Below the pieces are notes generated by a model. That model saw only the letters and a program-made list of their open reading frames with translations. It was not told the DNA's origin and did no database searches. Positions 22,652 through 55,344 of a stretch of DNA of 64,000 bases are shown here, in pieces. A program made the position numbers and the translations under genes. How positions within the stretch are numbered: position 1 is the first letter of the stretch; the number at the start of each line of letters is the position of its first letter. Source of the DNA: an uncultured Candidatus Binatia bacterium (GTDB lineage: Bacteria; Desulfobacterota; Binatia; Binatales; Binataceae); the NCBI GenBank assembly GCA_964429575.1, contig CAYSCX010000005.1:75564-139563 (forward strand). Reading direction: 5' to 3'.

Positions 22652-22727
22652 GGCGGCGTACCCAAGTGGCTAAGGGAGAGGTCTGCAAAACCTCCATTCA
22701 CCGGTTCGAGTCCGGTCGCCGCCTCCA
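22652..22727 (+). tRNA. tRNA-Cys (anticodon GCA)
   Basis: Acceptor GGCGGCG/CGCCGCC, anticodon stem GAGGT/ACCTC with loop CTGCAAA, T-arm ACCGG-TTCGAGT-CCGGT, discriminator T and an encoded CCA. Confidence 0.85.
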
Positions 22728-48874: not shown

Positions 48875-50122
48875 TTACTTCGGCGTCGATTCGGAGGTGG
48901 GAGACCCTGCGCCGGCCGCTCCGCCTTCAGGGGCGGCTGATGGTGTGGCTGTTGGCGTTGGTGGCGACAAGGGAGGCATCAGCGCGGAGCCCAACTGCGG
49001 TGGCGGCGCCGGCGACATCGGTGTCGCTTCCGATTCGGGACTCGAAAACGGGCTCAACACACCACGGACGCGCTCGTAGAGCCACAGCCCCCACCCACTG
49101 CCGCCGCCGAACACGTTTTTCATATCGTAGTAGAGGGTGGGATCGTTCACGATGAGCCCGGCGGTGCCTTGGCTTGCGTTGATCTTGTAAAGGATCTCCT
49201 TCAGATCGTTGCTTGACTGCTTGAGATTGGCCAGGACTTCGTCAGCAAGCTTCTCGTCCTCGAGGAATCGCGCCGCGAGCCCGTGCGAATTCTCGAAGCG
49301 CGTAACCAGCTTGTTCACGCGGTCCGAGGTGCTCTGGATGGCGTCAGCCGCCCGCCAAACCCGCTTCAGCAATTCCCGGCCATTGGTCTCATTGCTCAAC
49401 ATCGCGCCCACGAGACCTTCACCGCGGTTTATCTTCTCGATCAGCGCCGACATCTGAATCGAGAGCTGATTGACGCTATCGAGCGTCTTTCGGATCGACG
49501 CGATCGTGAGCTGATCCTGCTCAGAGCCGCTGGGAGCGCCGCGGATCAATTCGCCAAGGATACCCTCGCCCTTGTTGAGCGTTTCCAGGAGCGAGCGCAT
49601 GGAATTCGAAATAGCGATGAGGTTGGCAACCAGATCGTCAGTGCCCTTCTTCTGGAGCAACGTCTCGAGGTCGATCGGATCTCGCGCAGCAAGCACCTGA
49701 CCAGCTTCCGCTGCGGGCGATGCGGGTGTGCCGGGCGAGAGTTCCACAAACTTGTCGCCCAACAGCCCCATCGTGTTGATCTGGGCGACCGAGTCGGCGC
49801 GCACGCGCTCAACCGCGGAGCGCTCCACCCACATCCGTACAACTACGTAGTCAGCGGCCGGGTCCTGGGGAAAATAGATTGAATCCACAGCGCCGATCTG
49901 GACGCCCGCGAGGGAGACCGGCGCTCCCGCCTGCAGGCCGTTGATGCGCCGAAAGTGCGCTTCGATGGTTTCCGAGCGCGTCAGGAAACGCGCGCCCTGG
50001 CCGAGTGTCACTATCGCGAATGCAAGCAGCGCAAGCCCGGTCGCGATCACCAACCCCACCCGCAGCGCTGAGTATCGCGTGTCCGTCACTTTCCCGTTTC
50101 CTCCTGGTGTGCCGTCCCGCAA
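48875..50122 (-). CDS. mlaD: MlaD/Mce-family protein (outer-membrane lipid asymmetry / Mce transporter substrate-binding component) with a Pro-rich C-terminal tail
   Basis: N-terminal TM anchor followed by an Mce domain (…GLQAGAPVSLAGVQIGAV…), long coiled-coil-like repeats and a Pro/Ala/Ser-rich C-terminus. Confidence 0.8.
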   Translation of the reverse strand: MRDGTPGGNGKVTDTRYSALRVGLVIATGLALLAFAIVTLGQGARFLTRSETIEAHFRRINGLQAGAPVSLAGVQIGAVDSIYFPQDPAADYVVVRMWVERSAVERVRADSVAQINTMGLLGDKFVELSPGTPASPAAEAGQVLAARDPIDLETLLQKKGTDDLVANLIAISNSMRSLLETLNKGEGILGELIRGAPSGSEQDQLTIASIRKTLDSVNQLSIQMSALIEKINRGEGLVGAMLSNETNGRELLKRVWRAADAIQSTSDRVNKLVTRFENSHGLAARFLEDEKLADEVLANLKQSSNDLKEILYKINASQGTAGLIVNDPTLYYDMKNVFGGGSGWGLWLYERVRGVLSPFSSPESEATPMSPAPPPQLGSALMPPLSPPTPTATPSAAPEGGAAGAGSPTSESTPK

Positions 50123-50149
50123 ATTGGTTGAACAGATTGACCCGGCTTG

Positions 50150-50287
50150 GTGTCATTCTGAGCCCTTCGCCTTCTGTCATTCAGAGCGAAGCGAAGAATC
50201 CCGGATTCCGGCTCGGGGTAAACTCCGCGAGAGCCTGCCCTGAGCTTGCCGAAGGGAATCCCGGATTCCTGCTCAGCATGACAAACC
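50150..50287. repeat. structured intergenic element of nested inverted/direct repeats between mlaF and mlaD
   Basis: TGTCATTCTGAGC (50151) and TGTCATTCAGAGC (50175) are direct copies. GAATCCCGGATTCC appears twice (50196 and 50256). The terminal GCTCAGCATGACA (50270) is the inverted copy of TGTCATKCWGAGC. GAGCCCTTCGCCTTC is the inverse of GAAGCGAAG…. Confidence 0.55.
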
Positions 50288-50335
50288 TGGAATCGCGCAC
50301 AGTTAAGCGGCTTATGTGCGGAACTCAACATCCTG

Positions 50336-51085
50336 CTACAGCGCAGTCTCGACGAACTCCCGCATCAGTTCGTCGTGTGTCGCCCGGACTTCGTCTGAGC
50401 TGCCGCTGAACCGAATGCGTCCCCGGTCGAGCAGCGCAAACCGGTCGCCTACCTTGAACGCGCTCTTGAGATCGTGGGTTACCACCACGGACGTGAACCG
50501 CAACTGCCGCTGCAACCCCCGAATCATCAAGTTTATCTTGTGCGTGACGAGCGGATCCAAGCCGGTGGTGGGCTCATCGTACAGCACCGCGCGGGGCTCC
50601 AGTGCGATCGCGCGCGCAAGCGCCACGCGCTTCTTCATTCCACCTGAAAGCTCGGCTGGATAGAGCTGCTCGACGCCGCTCATCTCCACCATTTCGAGCA
50701 GCTCACGCACCCGGCGGCGCATCGCGCCTTCGTCGAGGTCACTGTGTTCGCGCAGCGGGTAGCTGATGTTCTCATACACCGTCAGAGAGTCGAAGAGGGC
50801 GCCGGACTGAAAGACCATCGAAACCTTCTTGCGCACCACGCCCAGTTCGTCCTCACTCATCAGGTTGAGGCGCTGCGCATCGACGATCACTTCTCCCGCG
50901 TCCGGGCGCTCAAGTCCGTTCAAATGGCGGAGCAGGACCGTCTTTCCCGACCCGCTCGCTCCGAGCACCACCACCGTTTCGCCCTCGATGACGTCCAGAT
51001 CGACGCCTTGCAGGACGGCCTTGCCATTGAAGCCCTTGTAGAGCCCGCGCACGGAGATAAATGGTCGTTTGCCGTTCGCAGCCAT
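50336..51085 (-). CDS. mlaF: ABC transporter ATP-binding protein (MlaF-type)
   Basis: Walker A GASGSGKT, ABC signature LSGGMKKRVALARA and Walker B LYDEPTTGLD. Its ATG at 51085 overlaps the mlaE stop (TAATG). Confidence 0.9.
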   Translation of the reverse strand: MAANGKRPFISVRGLYKGFNGKAVLQGVDLDVIEGETVVVLGASGSGKTVLLRHLNGLERPDAGEVIVDAQRLNLMSEDELGVVRKKVSMVFQSGALFDSLTVYENISYPLREHSDLDEGAMRRRVRELLEMVEMSGVEQLYPAELSGGMKKRVALARAIALEPRAVLYDEPTTGLDPLVTHKINLMIRGLQRQLRFTSVVVTHDLKSAFKVGDRFALLDRGRIRFSGSSDEVRATHDELMREFVETAL

Positions 51086-51840
51086 TACAGTGAGAGGAAG
51101 AGCTTGGTTAGAAAGAAATCGGAAATCAGCACAGTGATCGATGCCGCGACCACCGCCGAGGTAGTCGCACGCCCGACGCCGTCGGCGCCACCAGTGGCCG
51201 TGAGTCCCATATGACACGCGATGACCGCAATCTCGAAACCGAAAAAGACCGACTTGCCAAGTCCGCTCATCAAATCTTCCAGTGCGGTGTGCTGGATGAG
51301 CGATTGGTAAAAGTAATCGCCGCTGACGCCGAGCTGCGTGACAGAAATGATCAAACCGCCGAACAACCCGATCGCGTCGGCAATGATCGTCAGTACCGGA
51401 AGCATGATGACGGTTGCGAGCACGCGCGGCACCACGAGCTTCTTGACCGGGCTGGTCGCCAGCGCCCGCATCGCGTCGATTTGCTCGGTGACCTTCATCG
51501 TGCCGAGTTCAGCGGTGATTCCCGATCCGACGCGCGCGGCGACCATCAATGCGCTCAGCACCGGGCCCATCTCGCGCAACAGCGAGAGCCCCATGATGCG
51601 GCTGACGTAAATCTTTGCGCCGAAATTCGCCAGGAACTGGCCCATTTGCAGCGCCAGCACCATGCCCGAGAAAATCGCGGTCAGGTTGATGACGTTGAGC
51701 GAGCGGACGCCGACACTGTCGAGCTGAGCGACCAACAGCCGCATCTCGAATGGGCGGCGGACCAGGTACCGGAAGAACTGTCCGGTCAGCAGGCCGACTT
51801 GGCCGAGTTGGTCGAGAAACAGGTATATTCGGGGGAGCAT
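51085..51840 (-). CDS. mlaE: ABC transporter permease (MlaE-type)
   Basis: 251-aa multi-TM permease of the MlaE/YrbE family. Start is ATG at 51840 with GGGGGAG upstream. Confidence 0.85.
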   Translation of the reverse strand: MLPRIYLFLDQLGQVGLLTGQFFRYLVRRPFEMRLLVAQLDSVGVRSLNVINLTAIFSGMVLALQMGQFLANFGAKIYVSRIMGLSLLREMGPVLSALMVAARVGSGITAELGTMKVTEQIDAMRALATSPVKKLVVPRVLATVIMLPVLTIIADAIGLFGGLIISVTQLGVSGDYFYQSLIQHTALEDLMSGLGKSVFFGFEIAVIACHMGLTATGGADGVGRATTSAVVAASITVLISDFFLTKLFLSL

Positions 51841-51892: not shown

Positions 51893-52243
51893 GTGGGCGC
51901 AAAGTCCGACGACTCATCGTTGTTCGTTTACGGCGCACTGTTGCGCGACGTGCAAGTGCGCCAACTTCTCGGCCGCGATGTCGCCTCAATGCCCGCACGT
52001 CTTGCGGGTTTTGAGCGCGGGCACGCGCGTTACTTTTTCCTTCGTGTGAGACAAGGTGCGACATCCCAGGGTCGTTTGCTGCACGGGCTCTCTCAGAGCG
52101 ACTTCGCAATCCTCGACAAGTTTGAGGGCGTGCCGCGCCTCTATACTCGCGAGCGCATCGAGGTCACCGGCGCGTCGGGCGCGCTGGTGAATTGCTGGGT
52201 GTACTTGCCAACCGGATGGGAGCGGGTCGAATCGGCGCGCTAA
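51893..52243 (+). CDS. gamma-glutamylcyclotransferase-like (AIG2/GGCT family) protein
   Basis: N-terminal LFVYGALL… (YGSL-type motif) with an Asp/Glu further down. About 115 aa. GTG start. Confidence 0.65.
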   Translation: MGAKSDDSSLFVYGALLRDVQVRQLLGRDVASMPARLAGFERGHARYFFLRVRQGATSQGRLLHGLSQSDFAILDKFEGVPRLYTRERIEVTGASGALVNCWVYLPTGWERVESAR

Positions 52244-52252
52244 CGCACGCTG

Positions 52253-53671
52253 CTACTGCTTGACTTCGGCGGGCGGTGGCTTGCTCTCGCCGCGTTTCAA
52301 TCCGAACTTGTCGAGCCGGTACTGGAGGGTCCGGTAGCTCATCCCGAGCATCTTCGCTGCTTTGGCGATCACCCAGTCGGTGCGCTCCATCGCCTGCAAG
52401 ATCAAATCGCGCTCGAAGTGCTCGAAGTTGATCCCTTCAGTGGGAATCTCGAACCGCTCGGAACGCGATCGATCACCCGCGCGCCCGATCGGCTTGCGCG
52501 CCAGCACTTCCTGGGGGAGATCGCGCGGCATGATCTTGTCGCCCTCGCACAGCAGCAGCGCGCGCTCAATGGCGGATTCGAGCTGACGCACATTGCCGGG
52601 CCACGAGTAGTCCAGCAGCACTTCCATCGCCTCGCGGCTGATTTCCTTTACGCGGCCCTCGGCGAGATGACCGTACTTGGCCAGAGCGTGGCTGGTTAGC
52701 AGCGAGATATCGCCGTGGCGTTCGCGCAGCGGGGGCAGGGTGATAGTCACCACGTTGACGCGATAGTAGAGGTCCTCGCGGAAGCGCCCCTCGGCGACCT
52801 CCTCGGCAAGGTTTCGATTGGTCGCGGCGATAAGCCGCACGTCGACGCGGAACGGCTCGTTACCGCCGAGACGGCGGACTTCGCGCTCTTGAAGTACGCG
52901 CAGGATCTTTGCCTGCAATCCGGGGCCCAGGTCCGCAATCTCGTCCAGAAAAAGCGTTGACTTGTCCGCGCTCTCGATCAGTCCGACCTTGCGCTCGTTC
53001 GCGCCGGTGAACGCGCCGCGTTCGTGGCCGAAGAGTTCGTTCTCGATGAGGCTGTCAGGGATCGCCGAGCAGTTGATCGCGACAAACGGGCGCGCCGCGC
53101 GGGGCGATAGCCGGTGAATAGCGCGCGCCACTACTTCCTTGCCGGTGCCGCTCTCGCCCTGAATCAGGACAGTCGTATTCGACGGGGCAATCTTGCGGAC
53201 GATGCGCAGCAATTCGAGCACGGTCGGGTCCTGTCCGATGACGCCCTCGATTTTCAGCTTGCCTTCCAGGCTTCGCCGCAGGAGCAGATTTTCTTCCTGC
53301 AGGCTCGCAAGCTCGGCCGCCTTTGATACCGTCATCACCAGGGTTTCGCGATCGGTCGGTTTGGTCAGGTAGTAGAAGGCGCCGTTCTTCATCGCCTGGA
53401 CGGCGCTATCGATGGTGCCGTGCGCGGTGAGCACTACCACCTGGGTGCCGGGGAACTGCGGACGAATTTTCGAGAGCAGTTCTTCGCCCGACATCCCGGG
53501 CATCATGAGGTCAGTCAGCACGACGTCGAAACGGCTCGACCCCAGCAGGTCGAGCGCGCGCTTGCCGACCGCCGCCTCTTCGACCGCGAAGCCTTCATCG
53601 CGCAGCGTGTCGGCGGTGATTTGCCGTTCGAGGTCGTTGTCTTCGACTACTAGTACGGATGTGCGGTTCAT
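52253..53671 (-). CDS. sigma-54-dependent response regulator (NtrC family: REC - AAA+ sigma54 activator - Fis-type HTH)
   Basis: REC (VLVVEDNDL…DVVLTDLMMPGMSG…K). Walker A GESGTGKE, GAFTGA motif, ESELFGHE-like ENELFGHERGAFTGA, and C-terminal HTH (…AAKMLGMSYRTLQYRL…). Confidence 0.9.
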   Translation of the reverse strand: MNRTSVLVVEDNDLERQITADTLRDEGFAVEEAAVGKRALDLLGSSRFDVVLTDLMMPGMSGEELLSKIRPQFPGTQVVVLTAHGTIDSAVQAMKNGAFYYLTKPTDRETLVMTVSKAAELASLQEENLLLRRSLEGKLKIEGVIGQDPTVLELLRIVRKIAPSNTTVLIQGESGTGKEVVARAIHRLSPRAARPFVAINCSAIPDSLIENELFGHERGAFTGANERKVGLIESADKSTLFLDEIADLGPGLQAKILRVLQEREVRRLGGNEPFRVDVRLIAATNRNLAEEVAEGRFREDLYYRVNVVTITLPPLRERHGDISLLTSHALAKYGHLAEGRVKEISREAMEVLLDYSWPGNVRQLESAIERALLLCEGDKIMPRDLPQEVLARKPIGRAGDRSRSERFEIPTEGINFEHFERDLILQAMERTDWVIAKAAKMLGMSYRTLQYRLDKFGLKRGESKPPPAEVKQ

Positions 53672-55173
53672 ACCTGCCGGCGTGGACCGTTGGATGGGAA
53701 GGAGAAGGTTACCGTGGTACCCGGACCGGTTTCGTTCCTGCCGATTGTGATTGTACCACCATGCGTTTCAACAATCGCCTTGGATAGAAACAGTCCCAGC
53801 CCGATCCCTTCGCGCTTGGTCGTGAAGAACGGCTCGAACACGTGGCTCGCGATTTCCGGATCGATACCGGGGCCGGTATCGGAGAAGCTGACCTCAAGGT
53901 TCCCATTTAGCGGTTGGATTCCAATCGTGAGCTTGCCGCCGTCGGGCATCGCCTGAATCGCGTTGGCGACTACGTTGACGAAACAGGTGCGCAGCTTTTC
54001 CGCATCGGCGTTTAGCAGCGGCGGCGCGCCGTTCAGCGGCTGGGAGACATCAATACCCTGCACCTTGAGCTTGGAGTCGGAGATCGCGAGCACGCTGTCG
54101 ATGAGCTGTCGCAGATCGGTGGGCGCAGGATGGATCTCAATCGGCCGGCCGTAGTTCAGGAAGCTCTGGATTAGTTCCGAAAGGCGGCGTACTTCGTCCT
54201 TCATGATGACCAGTTGCTGCTGGAAGCCGCCACGGTCCTGCGTCAATTGGCCGGAATATCGAGCGCGCAATTGGTCGAGCGCGAGGCTTATGAAGTTGAG
54301 CGGGTTCTTGATTTCGTGCGCCAGGCCGCCGGCGAGCTGGCCGAGCGCGGTGAAGCGCTCGAGCCGGTTCAATTCGTGTTCCCGCTCGCGAGCATGGCGG
54401 AGCTGGCTCACCATCTCATTGAAACTCCGGGTGAGCAGTCCGATTTCGTCGCGCCGGTTCGCCTCTGGAACCGGTTCCAGGCCGCGCGCTGCGATGTTCT
54501 GCGCCGCGGCCGCGACTTCGTGAATCGGCTCCACATAGCGATCCGCGAGCAGGTAGGCGAAGCCCAGACCGATCGCGAAGATCACGAACGCGACGGTGAT
54601 TTGATGCATCCGGGCTTGCTGCAGGGGCTGCGCGAACTCGGCAAAGTTGGCGACCACCCGAACATAGCCGAGCAGGTGGTCCTCGACTTTGACCGGAATC
54701 AGGTACTCGGTCGTTTCATGGAGTGGAACCACCACGCCTTGCTTGCCTTCCTCCTCGGGCAGCACAACCTGGCGCGTCACGATCGAGTCGTCGGCGGGCG
54801 GAATCACCGCGGCGCCGATCAACTTGGGGTTGGAGCTGTTGATGATGAGGTTCTGACTGGACGCGATCGATACCTCGAGTCCCTTGTTGGGCAGCTTGGC
54901 GACAAAGTCTTGCAACTGGCCGCGATCCATGCTGGTGACCGAGGTGAGTTGCTGCACGCTGATCTGGATGATGCTCGCGAGGTCCTTTACCTTCTGCTGA
55001 GTGGTGCGAACAATCGCATCTTGAGTACCCAGGCTCACCCACACCTCGGCGCCCAGAGTCAGTCCGAGCAGGACCACCATTAGAAGTATGAGCTTCGCTT
55101 TTAGATTCAGCACCGGAAGCCAGCCGCCCAGCGCGTCTCTCCACTCGCGTATCATTCTCATCGGCCGATCCAT
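53668..55173 (-). CDS. membrane sensor histidine kinase (2 TM - HAMP - HisKA - HATPase_c), partner of the NtrC-like regulator
   Basis: H-box LAGGLAHEIKNPLNFI, and N/G boxes (…NAIQAM…, …DTGPGI…, GIGLGL). The stop overlaps the regulator start (ATGA). Start is ATG at 55173 with GGGGGTGA upstream, or 55161. Confidence 0.85.
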   Translation of the reverse strand: MDRPMRMIREWRDALGGWLPVLNLKAKLILLMVVLLGLTLGAEVWVSLGTQDAIVRTTQQKVKDLASIIQISVQQLTSVTSMDRGQLQDFVAKLPNKGLEVSIASSQNLIINSSNPKLIGAAVIPPADDSIVTRQVVLPEEEGKQGVVVPLHETTEYLIPVKVEDHLLGYVRVVANFAEFAQPLQQARMHQITVAFVIFAIGLGFAYLLADRYVEPIHEVAAAAQNIAARGLEPVPEANRRDEIGLLTRSFNEMVSQLRHAREREHELNRLERFTALGQLAGGLAHEIKNPLNFISLALDQLRARYSGQLTQDRGGFQQQLVIMKDEVRRLSELIQSFLNYGRPIEIHPAPTDLRQLIDSVLAISDSKLKVQGIDVSQPLNGAPPLLNADAEKLRTCFVNVVANAIQAMPDGGKLTIGIQPLNGNLEVSFSDTGPGIDPEIASHVFEPFFTTKREGIGLGLFLSKAIVETHGGTITIGRNETGPGTTVTFSFPSNGPRRQV

Positions 55174-55344
55174 AATCGTCACCCCCGGCCGCGCGCCGAG
55201 CCTGGTGCACGCCACCAGGTATTATTCACGAACTGCCGCTCTCTATGGCGCGCATCCGAACATTCTACCAGCGTAGAAGAGCGCGACGGCCATCGCGGCC
55301 ACCAGCATCAGGCGCTCAGAGCCGGTCAGGTAGTCGGGCAAACG

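Follow-up and report, generated by a model that had tools for sequence, protein, structure and literature searches.

An insertion between mlaF and mlaD

The 64,000-nucleotide (nt) stretch of DNA analyzed here (hereafter, the window), from an uncultured Candidatus Binatia bacterium (contig CAYSCX010000005.1, positions 75,564 to 139,563), contains an mla operon in which a spacer built of repeats separates mlaF from mlaD (Table 1). The original prediction had recognized the repeats in this spacer and had put its length at 213 bp. The repeats were recovered, but the length has to be revised: the start of mlaD is most likely a GTG codon that, together with its Shine-Dalgarno (SD) sequence, aligns with those of relatives L028-L031, and because mlaD starts there, the spacer spans 246 nt.

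In the five closest relatives, with MlaF identities of 96% (L028), 86% (L029 and L030), 85% and 81% (L031 and L032 are also in this set), the mlaF stop codon is separated from the mlaD start by ~14 nt and overlaps the SD sequence (for example, ...ctcTAGgagccaacgggaaaGTG in L028). Proteins named Candidatus Binataceae are among the MlaF relatives of the window. Thus, compared with the 246 nt in the window, ~232 nt of the spacer is new in the window lineage and is a recent, lineage-specific insertion, so that the comparison of spacer lengths proposed with the original prediction came out in favor of an inserted element. The insert is flanked by a duplication of ~21 nt of the junction. The duplicated target takes in the end of mlaF with its stop codon as well as the SD sequence, and is represented by a single ancestral copy in L028. 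Only 4 of the ~128,000 21-mers in the window match the ancestral 21-mer of L028 at 15 or more positions; the duplication is statistically real.

Within the insert, all the repeats described in the original prediction were found: the direct copies TGTCATTCTGAGC (50151-50163) and TGTCATTCAGAGC (50175-50187), 24 nt apart from start to start; the inverted copy GCTCAGCATGACA (50271-50283), complementary at 12 of 13 bases; the near-palindromic GAATCCCGGATTCC, present twice (50196-50209 and 50256-50269); and CCTTCGCCTTC (50164-50174), which complements GAAGCGAAG (50188-50196). When up to two mismatches are allowed, GAATCCCGGATTCC has 4 matches against 0.59 expected, a number reached in none of 100 shuffles. 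The stretch bounded by the presumed terminal inverted repeats (TIRs) is 133 nt long (50151-50283), but the inserted DNA is larger, at ~232 nt.

Read on the plus strand, the element consists of a 24-nt head-only unit, a 25-nt hairpin repeat (arm A), an interior motif and a degenerate inverted arm (arm A'). Both heads, and arm A, carry the tag TGTCAT, and arm A ends with ...AGAATCC. Compared with arm A, arm A' has lost ~7 nt of the mini-hairpin, and scans of the genome and metagenome collections detected no other copy of this short form. The small stem-loop next to mlaF is not common to the other fetched loci. As originally proposed, the element is co-transcribed with the operon and able to form a hairpin predicted to be very stable: the RNA fold of the 213-nt stretch has an energy of -84.2 kcal/mol on either strand (z = -3.7 and -3.5), and the single-stranded DNA (ssDNA) fold of positions 50140-50295 has an energy of -35.2 kcal/mol (z = -4.0). 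Mechanically called open reading frames (ORFs) of 81-134 aa cross the repeat (50086-50331 on the minus strand; 49941-50243 and 50005-50409 on the plus strand); spurious 'hypothetical proteins' in databases that contain motifs like ...RFALNDR... probably stem from such ORFs.

Table 1. Features of the mla locus and of the inserted element in the window
Feature	Positions	Strand	Remarks
mlaE	51085-51840	minus	Pfam MlaE
mlaF (ABC ATPase)	50336-51085	minus	stop TAG 50338-50336; Pfam ABC_tran, 1e-31; JGI call of 249 aa
mlaD	48875-50089	minus	likely start GTG 50089-50087; SD AGGAGG 50105-50100; Pfam MlaD, 7e-20
mlaF-mlaD spacer, whole	50090-50335 (246 nt)	minus	~232 nt has no counterpart in the nearest five relatives
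Left copy of the duplicated target, CGAGACTGCGCTGTAGCAGGA	50331-50351	minus	functional mlaF 3' end and stop; 16/21 match to L028
Left end of the insert, CAGGATGTTGAG	50324-50335	minus	directly after TAG on the transcript strand; counterpart TAGCAGGGTGCTGA at tldD-pmbA in L182/L183
Small stem-loop CGCACA...TGTGCG	50296-50320	minus	just downstream of the mlaF stop; paired in RNA folds
Degenerate inverted arm A', TGTCATGCTGAGC-AG-GAATCCGGGATTCC (transcript strand)	50255-50283	minus	nhmmer score 15
Filler between interior motif and arm A'	50232-50254 (23 nt)		position of the ssn ORF in full-length relatives (L222 alignment)
Conserved interior motif, GGCTCGGGGTAAACTCCGCGAG	50210-50231	plus	colinear with L060, the L077 phage contig and the 5' flank of L222 ssn
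Palindrome GAATCCCGGATTC after arm A	50196-50208
Arm A, TGTCATTCAGAGCGAAGCGAAGAATCC, TGTC-tagged 25-nt hairpin repeat	50175-50201	plus	nhmmer score 53
24-nt head-only unit, TGTCATTCTGAGCCCTTCGCCTTC	50151-50174	plus	double-head layout recurs elsewhere
Composite block	50120-50231	plus	blastn to L060 8514-8625: 112 nt, 92.9% identity, E = 1e-40
Right, diverged copy of the target, CGGGACGGCACACCAGGAGGA	50099-50119	minus	TAG -> CAG; holds the mlaD SD; 15/21 match to L028

A closely similar unit is present at a different operon junction. In L060, another Binataceae contig from a metagenome, a block of ~112-113 nt that is 93% identical to window positions 50120-50231 lies between the co-directional genes tldD and pmbA, in the same orientation as in the window. 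The block includes 31 nt of what had appeared to be flank, the head-only unit, arm A and GGCTCRGGGYAAACTCCGCGAG; the window's right arm is absent, positions 50232-50288 being missing from the L060 copy. Because the window block recurs between tldD and pmbA, the repeat unit does not end at the TIRs of the original prediction. In relatives L184-L186, the tldD-pmbA junction is 14-22 nt long, and the block in L060 is a second, independent insertion. In L182 and L183 (SRR6155503 and SRR6155487; positions 98-148), where the pmbA relative is 96% identical to that of L060, the spacer is 51 nt long and contains a 37-nt insert, cagggtgctgaaaATGACtttTTCAACggcctgc, between two TAGs. Of the full element, this remnant has retained the left end, a piece of a tail and the TTCAAC; it may be a footprint of excision, what is left after a deletion, or a precursor. 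In both operons, mla and tld, the downstream junction retains the ancestral stop-plus-SD sequence.

A widespread family of tagged hairpin repeats

The window arms are members of a multi-copy family, TGTCATYCWGAGCGNAGCGAAGRATC. The search for further copies proposed with the original prediction was run and yielded related copies in many genomes. A scan of species-representative (GTDB) genomes and of metagenomes with the pattern TGTCATKCWGAGC-N(0-12)-GAATCCSGGATTC returned 21 stretches in the GTDB genomes (8 labeled Binatus/Binataceae, 12 from metagenome-assembled genomes labeled 'delta proteobacterium' and 1 from Desulfatirhabdium) and 28 stretches in the metagenomes. The simplest copies are hairpins of 80-100 nt, each consisting of an arm, a ~20-nt loop and an inverted arm; no target-site duplication (TSD) was found at the simple hairpin copies in L012, L014, L016, L017 and L025. 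Head-to-head hairpin dimers occur in these five loci and in L021, and 148 of 189 arms are solo. A profile search detected several arms per 8-kb locus in other loci.

The 25-mer GTCATYCWGAGCGNAGCGAAGRATC is present in at least 120 stretches of viral contigs with a GC content of 0.32-0.70. These contigs are genuinely from phages, and genes for portal, capsid and adaptor proteins lie close to the matches. Among cultured phages (INPHARED), the motif is essentially missing. The 25-mer is also found on plasmids of Planktothrix, Calothrix, Oscillatoria, Hymenobacter, Phocaeicola and Granulicella.

The structure of the 25-nt arm, ...(((((..((...))..)))))., comprises a 5-bp stem, a tandem G·A, a 2-bp stem and a GNA loop, and the consensus motif is GTC + ATYCT-GA-GC-GNA-GC-GA-AGRAT + C. 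Among 39 distinct variants gathered with a relaxed regular expression that left the stems free, compensatory (two-sided) changes occur at 6 of the 7 pairs, and 93% of the cells are paired; the corresponding values are 84% for shuffles, none of 500 of which attains the observed share, and 55% or less for controls with slid partners. Among the viral matches listed, positions 6 and 21 covary (TA 85, CG 53, GC 3, TG 1, CA 0) and the N of the loop is free (C 54, A 48, G 25, T 15). In the 39 variants, G1, T2 and C3 are invariant, A4 and T5 are conserved at 90% or more, and the first two pairs of the stem are AT in 34 and 33 of the 39 variants, respectively, with a C tail. The C at position 25 lies directly 3' of the palindrome in every copy, its position being fixed by both the retrieval pattern and the relaxed regular expression.

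The double head seen in the window, in which a full arm comes after a 24-nt head-only unit, is also found elsewhere, in 10 distinct loci (among them L060, L077, L069, L075, L161 and L181, the last being a Planktothrix plasmid locus). Tandem arrays of head units with a period of 23-25 nt are found in L086, L187 (16150-16350) and L225 (1176-1330, with at least 6 tails). The array in L086, upstream of the portal gene of a phage contig (160-460), consists of 7 tandem 24-nt heads, a full arm and 4 tails of ~23 nt, and makes up a multi-layer nested hairpin with unequal numbers of heads and tails. Unlike these head-only arrays, a viral contig (L138, 9435-9500) contains three full 25-mers arranged head to tail with a 33-nt period. 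Several phage contigs have the 25-mer at a distance of 25-36 nt from a major capsid gene (L084 at 5706, L091, L125 and L141); elsewhere, it is located 10-40 nt upstream of start codons. On Planktothrix plasmids, hairpin repeats occur within the coding sequence of a large MmeI-like type IIL restriction-modification gene (L187, 18261-18440 and 19938-20119; L181, 16884-17041 and 18591-18700); these may be in-frame intragenic repeats such as those reported for RPE and some repetitive extragenic palindromes (REPs). In Binataceae loci, solo arms are often followed by a second repeat, ...CCCTCTCCCTGTGAGGGAGAGGATCGAAGGTGAGGGTCC... (L007, 4742-4790; L009, 3322-3370; L034, 3256-3300; L053, 2764-2810), accompanied by a recurring 'caagattccgc' segment, and this recurrence points to larger mosaic units.

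Association with genes for Ssn-type nucleases

A Planktothrix plasmid encodes a 94-aa GIY-YIG protein in a gene bracketed by multi-layer copies of the TGTCAT repeat, and tblastn with this protein detected homologs on 34 plasmids or chromids; no model for these proteins was found in NCBIfam. GTC-hairpins lie near the small GIY-YIG gene in all 10 inspected cases, sampled from plasmids (Planktothrix, Spirosoma, Rhizobium, Sinorhizobium (S.) meliloti, Azospirillum, Aeromonas, N. gonorrhoeae, Sphingobium, Photobacterium and Novosphingobium), with the head upstream and the tail downstream, and are present on both sides in 9 of the 10; in Photobacterium, the repeats are on one side only, and in Novosphingobium, the tag is a variant. 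In a density control over 40 kb of Azospirillum sequence, 3 of 4 motif copies were located no more than 86 nt from the GIY-YIG gene, and shuffled sequence contains 0.1 copies. On AZO_p3 of Azospirillum lipoferum 4B (L191, 19995-20288), an ssn-like gene with a hairpin on each side splits sufB and sufC, an operon-junction insertion of the same kind as that in the window.

The association of GTC-hairpin repeats with small GIY-YIG genes is already published. The Ssn family comprises GIY-YIG single-strand DNA endonucleases of ~95 aa (cd10448; PMC11893778; Nat Commun 2025;16:2388). The Neisseria enzyme SsnA binds and cuts the NTS hairpin CGTCATTCCCGCGMAVGCGGGAATCYRG in ssDNA only, not in RNA, and needs the C that follows the palindrome and the 3 nt that precede it but is indifferent to the loop; the wider class of Ssn-related motifs (SRM) flanks 71% of Ssn homologs (PMC11893778).

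A locus that directly connects the window element with these genes is L222. Here the protein P0271, 79% identical to the Planktothrix protein and 44% identical, over the full length, to the N. gonorrhoeae SsnA copy that sits among canonical NTS repeats, is encoded downstream of two heads, TGTCATCCTGAGCGAAGCGAAGGATC, then ...GCTCAGGGTAAACTCCGCGAAGGATCTC, and the ssn-like ORF ends within the inverted arm GAGATTCTTCGCTCTCGCTCAGAATGACA. The L222 layout aligns colinearly with window positions 50151-50231, and therefore the window element has the arm-ssn-arm anatomy without the ORF. The full-length layout consists of one or more head units, the 25-nt arm, GCTCAGGGTAAACTCCGCG, the ssn ORF and the inverted arm, and the TGTCAT family flanks ssn homologs at L222, L187, L221 and L225 and is present on the flanks of homologs in Planktothrix, Lyngbya and Coleofasciculus. 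The presence of head, arm and GCTCAGGGTAAACTCCGCG on the flanks of SsnA-like GIY-YIG genes links the family to the Ssn/SRM system and to the CGTC-tagged REPs.

The TGTCAT family and the SRM/NTS repeats share a 5' tag, HGTC, that precedes W-Y and sets the orientation of the repeat; a hairpin straight after the tag; a C directly behind the palindrome; a free loop; numerous copies, often in inverted pairs; and a location on the flanks of genes for GIY-YIG proteins of 94-106 aa that are 44-47% identical to the N. gonorrhoeae SsnA copy. They differ in that the TGTCAT stem is AT-rich and interrupted by two tandem G·A mismatches and has a GNA triloop, the window copy lacks an ssn gene, and the TGTCAT family is abundant in phage contigs. 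The evidence of cleavage comes from Neisseria SsnA.

The CGTC-tagged REPs, which include the Neisseria dRS3/NIME and the Rickettsia RPE-4/6 (Di Nocera et al. 2013, PMC3733652), often carry the tag TGTC and may carry CCTC, have stems that begin with AT and form head-to-head dimers, and dRS3 corresponds to CGTC-1; no dedicated transposase was reported by the authors (PMC3733652). The TGTCAT repeats resemble them in the unpaired CGTC/TGTC tag, a stem starting with A-T and T-A, a short unpaired tail that begins with C, head-to-head dimers that make larger hairpins, copies between co-directional genes, mosaic clusters, and some copies within ORFs (here, the Planktothrix MmeI-like coding sequence). 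The hosts differ: Binatota, Cyanobacteria, Bacteroidota, Acidobacteriota and phages here, mainly Alphaproteobacteria there. Against an assignment to CGTC-1 to CGTC-4, with their perfect stems of 8-9 bp and loops of 4-5 nt, speaks the TGTCAT structure of 5 bp, G·A/A·G, 2 bp and a 3-nt loop, so that this would be a further family beyond the four. Cyanobacterial small dispersed repeats (SDRs; Elhai et al. 2008), compared here by description only, are similar in having nested or tandem units of ~21-27 nt that extend hairpins; SDRs have been reported only in Nostocaceae (PMC5861425). The papers on cyanobacterial SDRs and on Planktothrix MITEs and REPs (see below for MITEs) describe different elements, and a literature search with the sequence strings matched only unrelated primers.

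Origin of the insertion and alternative explanations

The reading that we favor, with a probability of roughly 0.72, is that the spacer contains a lineage-specific insertion that is a gene-less, partly decayed member of the TGTC/CGTC-tagged REP (SRM) hairpin repeats. The central claim of the original prediction, an inserted, repeat-built and multi-copy element, is borne out by the empty orthologous sites and by the copies in many genomes. Several observations weigh against this reading. The canonical 25-mer recovers the fold at only -1.9 kcal/mol with standard DNA parameters, and for arm A of the window, with its A·A mismatch, no fold is predicted in isolation, so that the support for the hairpin rests on covariation. 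The 64-kb window holds a single cluster. No ssn homolog was found in the window or in ~300 kb of Binataceae loci by tblastn and a hidden Markov model (HMM) built from 4 sequences, so that a partner enzyme in this organism is an assumption. None of the 120 listed phage loci with the 25-mer was found to encode ssn by tblastn and HMM search; of 16 ssn relatives in viral contigs, 3 have hairpins of the CGTCACCCCGG type on their flanks and none has the 25-mer. The published SRM motif, HGTCWYN(0-2)YYVSBRHN(0-5)WNVSBRGN(0-2)RNCYNB, matches neither the 25-mer family nor either window arm, with 0 matches in the whole window, and does match the NTS, Azospirillum and Rhizobium repeats; this string is a search tool derived from 29 genomes rather than a biochemical definition. 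Finally, Ssn has been shown to cut DNA, not to mobilize it, and neither the ~21-nt duplication nor the tandem head-only units can be accounted for by a nuclease alone.

The original prediction had offered two interpretations, a MITE (miniature inverted-repeat transposable element) and a structured regulatory RNA. A classical MITE, that is, a deletion derivative of an insertion sequence (IS) with a DDE transposase, bounded by the 13-nt TIRs TGTCATTCTGAGC...GCTCAGCATGACA and by a TSD, would account for the TG...CA termini, the match of the TIRs at 12 of 13 positions, the empty site in relatives and the duplication of TAG-containing sequence at both the mla and the tld junctions. Like Correia/NEMIS, ERIC and Nezha, the element is small, non-coding, bounded by inverted repeats, insertion-polymorphic and co-transcribed. 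However, the block shared with L060 begins 31 nt beyond the left TIR and does not include the right one, so the bounds of the unit are not the TIRs; the duplicated target does not adjoin the TIRs but is 32-48 nt away from them, on the outside; the family has no regular TSD, the simple copies lacking it altogether, and mostly consists of lone arms; and covariation within a single tagged arm is unexpected for a protein-bound TIR. Neither is there a matching IS: in a Pfam search, 87 ORFs next to arms (ORFs <110 aa excluded; 25 best of 72 families listed) and ten arm-flanked ORFs scanned singly were housekeeping genes or had no match, with no transposase among them. Across all loci, the ORFs bracketed by head and tail encode phage capsid, portal or adaptor proteins rather than enzymes. 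We regard a MITE as quite unlikely.

The same search bears on a REPIN, an inverted REP pair mobilized by a RAYT (an IS200/IS605-like Y1 HUH transposase), in that no Y1_Tnp domain was among the 25 best of the 72 families or in the ten ORFs. In outline, the TGTCAT family does resemble the REP/REPIN/BIME and RAYT systems (Bertels and Rainey 2011, PMC3116915): short, imperfect palindromes with an unpaired 5' tag form inverted doublets, extragenic and in many copies, as singles, dimers and mosaic clusters, also within operons, and a single-copy gene for a partner nuclease is flanked by the repeats. Yet the tag is TGTC/CGTC, not GTAG, and the gene that the family flanks encodes a GIY-YIG enzyme instead of a HUH Y1 enzyme; no RAYT flanked by CGTC repeats was reported by Di Nocera et al. 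(PMC3733652). The TGTCAT family is not a member of this class, and mobilization of the window element by a RAYT appears very unlikely.

A selected cis-regulatory RNA, such as an attenuator, a processing site or a stabilizer that sets the MlaD:MlaEF ratio, is unlikely as well. In its favor, the element is co-transcribed and has a predicted fold well below that of shuffled sequence, the AGGAGG SD is kept downstream, and REPs within operons modulate the expression of flanking genes (PMC3733652, background). However, all five closest relatives lack the element, the same unit is found in an unrelated operon, and the right arm is decaying. Rfam gave no match in positions 49900-50600, either at the gathering threshold or at E <= 10, and no promoter or terminator consensus was found in the spacer; the only Rfam/ARAGORN matches in the window are tRNA-Gly(GCC) at 293-368 and tRNA-Cys(GCA) at 22652-22727. 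The repeats show no bias in orientation relative to the neighboring ORFs (26 in the same and 25 in the opposite direction) and no wobble asymmetry (G·U vs A·C) between paired arms (14 vs 20), and this lack of asymmetry counts against a strand-specific RNA role. The characterized enzyme of the related repeats acts on ssDNA, not RNA (PMC11893778). Without an Rfam match, strand bias or conservation, a dedicated riboregulator of mlaD is unsupported.

An assembly artefact or a chimera at the repeat might be suspected, given that three independent Logan assemblies of other samples (L002, L003 and L005; SRR6155503, SRR6155504 and SRR6155509) end at the same base, window position 50260. This is extremely unlikely, considering that a JGI contig (Ga0494003_0000043, metagenome 3300048080) spans the element and that the flanking junctions make biological sense, with both the stop codon and the SD preserved. 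Moreover, a fourth Logan assembly (L004, SRR35513625) reads 104 nt into the spacer, 28 nt past the break in the others, to end near position 50232, and has the same sequence, with one single-nucleotide polymorphism in the small hairpin; therefore, the element is real. Repetition or polymorphism in those communities, in the form of other copies or allelic variants, is the probable cause of the breaks.

In the favored reading, the repeat unit consists of (T/C)GTC, an AT-stem hairpin and C, and the window copy has kept the heads, an arm, the interior motif and a truncated inverted arm but not the ORF. The insert is placed exactly between the mlaF stop codon and the mlaD SD sequence, with the ~21-nt junction duplication preserving both signals. 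When the DNA becomes single-stranded, during replication or repair or as incoming DNA, the arms could fold, and we infer that a nuclease of the Ssn type, encoded elsewhere in the genome, would bind and cut them. Such cutting may underlie the spread and turnover of the family, or an effect on recombination. The 133-nt hairpin in the mlaEFD transcript would then be a passive by-product, and effects on mlaD expression are likely a by-product, too. An effect of this kind is nevertheless plausible by analogy: the insert would break the mlaF-mlaD translational coupling seen in relatives, and the hairpin might act as a stabilizer or an attenuator, protecting the upstream mlaEF RNA or damping read-through, as REP/BIME elements do.

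A more far-reaching proposal, which is speculative and which we consider rather doubtful, is that the TGTCAT 25-mer family, with its tandem-G·A/GNA hairpin, 24-nt heads and GCTCAGGGTAAACTCCGCG interior, is a separate branch of the Ssn/SRM system that spreads horizontally, with nuclease-driven mobility. Under this proposal, arm-ssn-arm units and gene-less miniatures would prefer stop/SD junctions between tightly coupled genes of operons (mlaF|mlaD, tldD|pmbA and sufB|sufC), a long target duplication would keep both genes expressed, and phages would have been colonized.

The neighborhood upstream of the mla genes (51893-55215, minus strand; also in L001), which is conserved in L029 and L032, encodes a sigma-54 response regulator (52253-53671) and a HAMP/HisKA sensor kinase and, on the opposite strand, contains a GGACT-family gene.

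The findings reported here explain the 246-nt gap in a tightly coupled mla operon as selfish or genome-dynamics DNA, and the ORFs of 81-134 aa that run through the spacer should not be annotated as genes. The common environmental and phage 'mystery' motif GTCATYCTGAGCGNAGCGAAGRATC, a source of many spurious hypothetical proteins, becomes linkable to Ssn nucleases, and the published SRM search string misses the TGTCAT branch. Repeats of the Ssn type are extended to what is likely a Binataceae (Binatota) genome, and the filled and empty sites at mlaF|mlaD and tldD|pmbA provide clean material on the mode of repeat insertion. Should nuclease-driven mobility prove true, these repeats would be a new class of bacterial mobile element rather than passive repeats.

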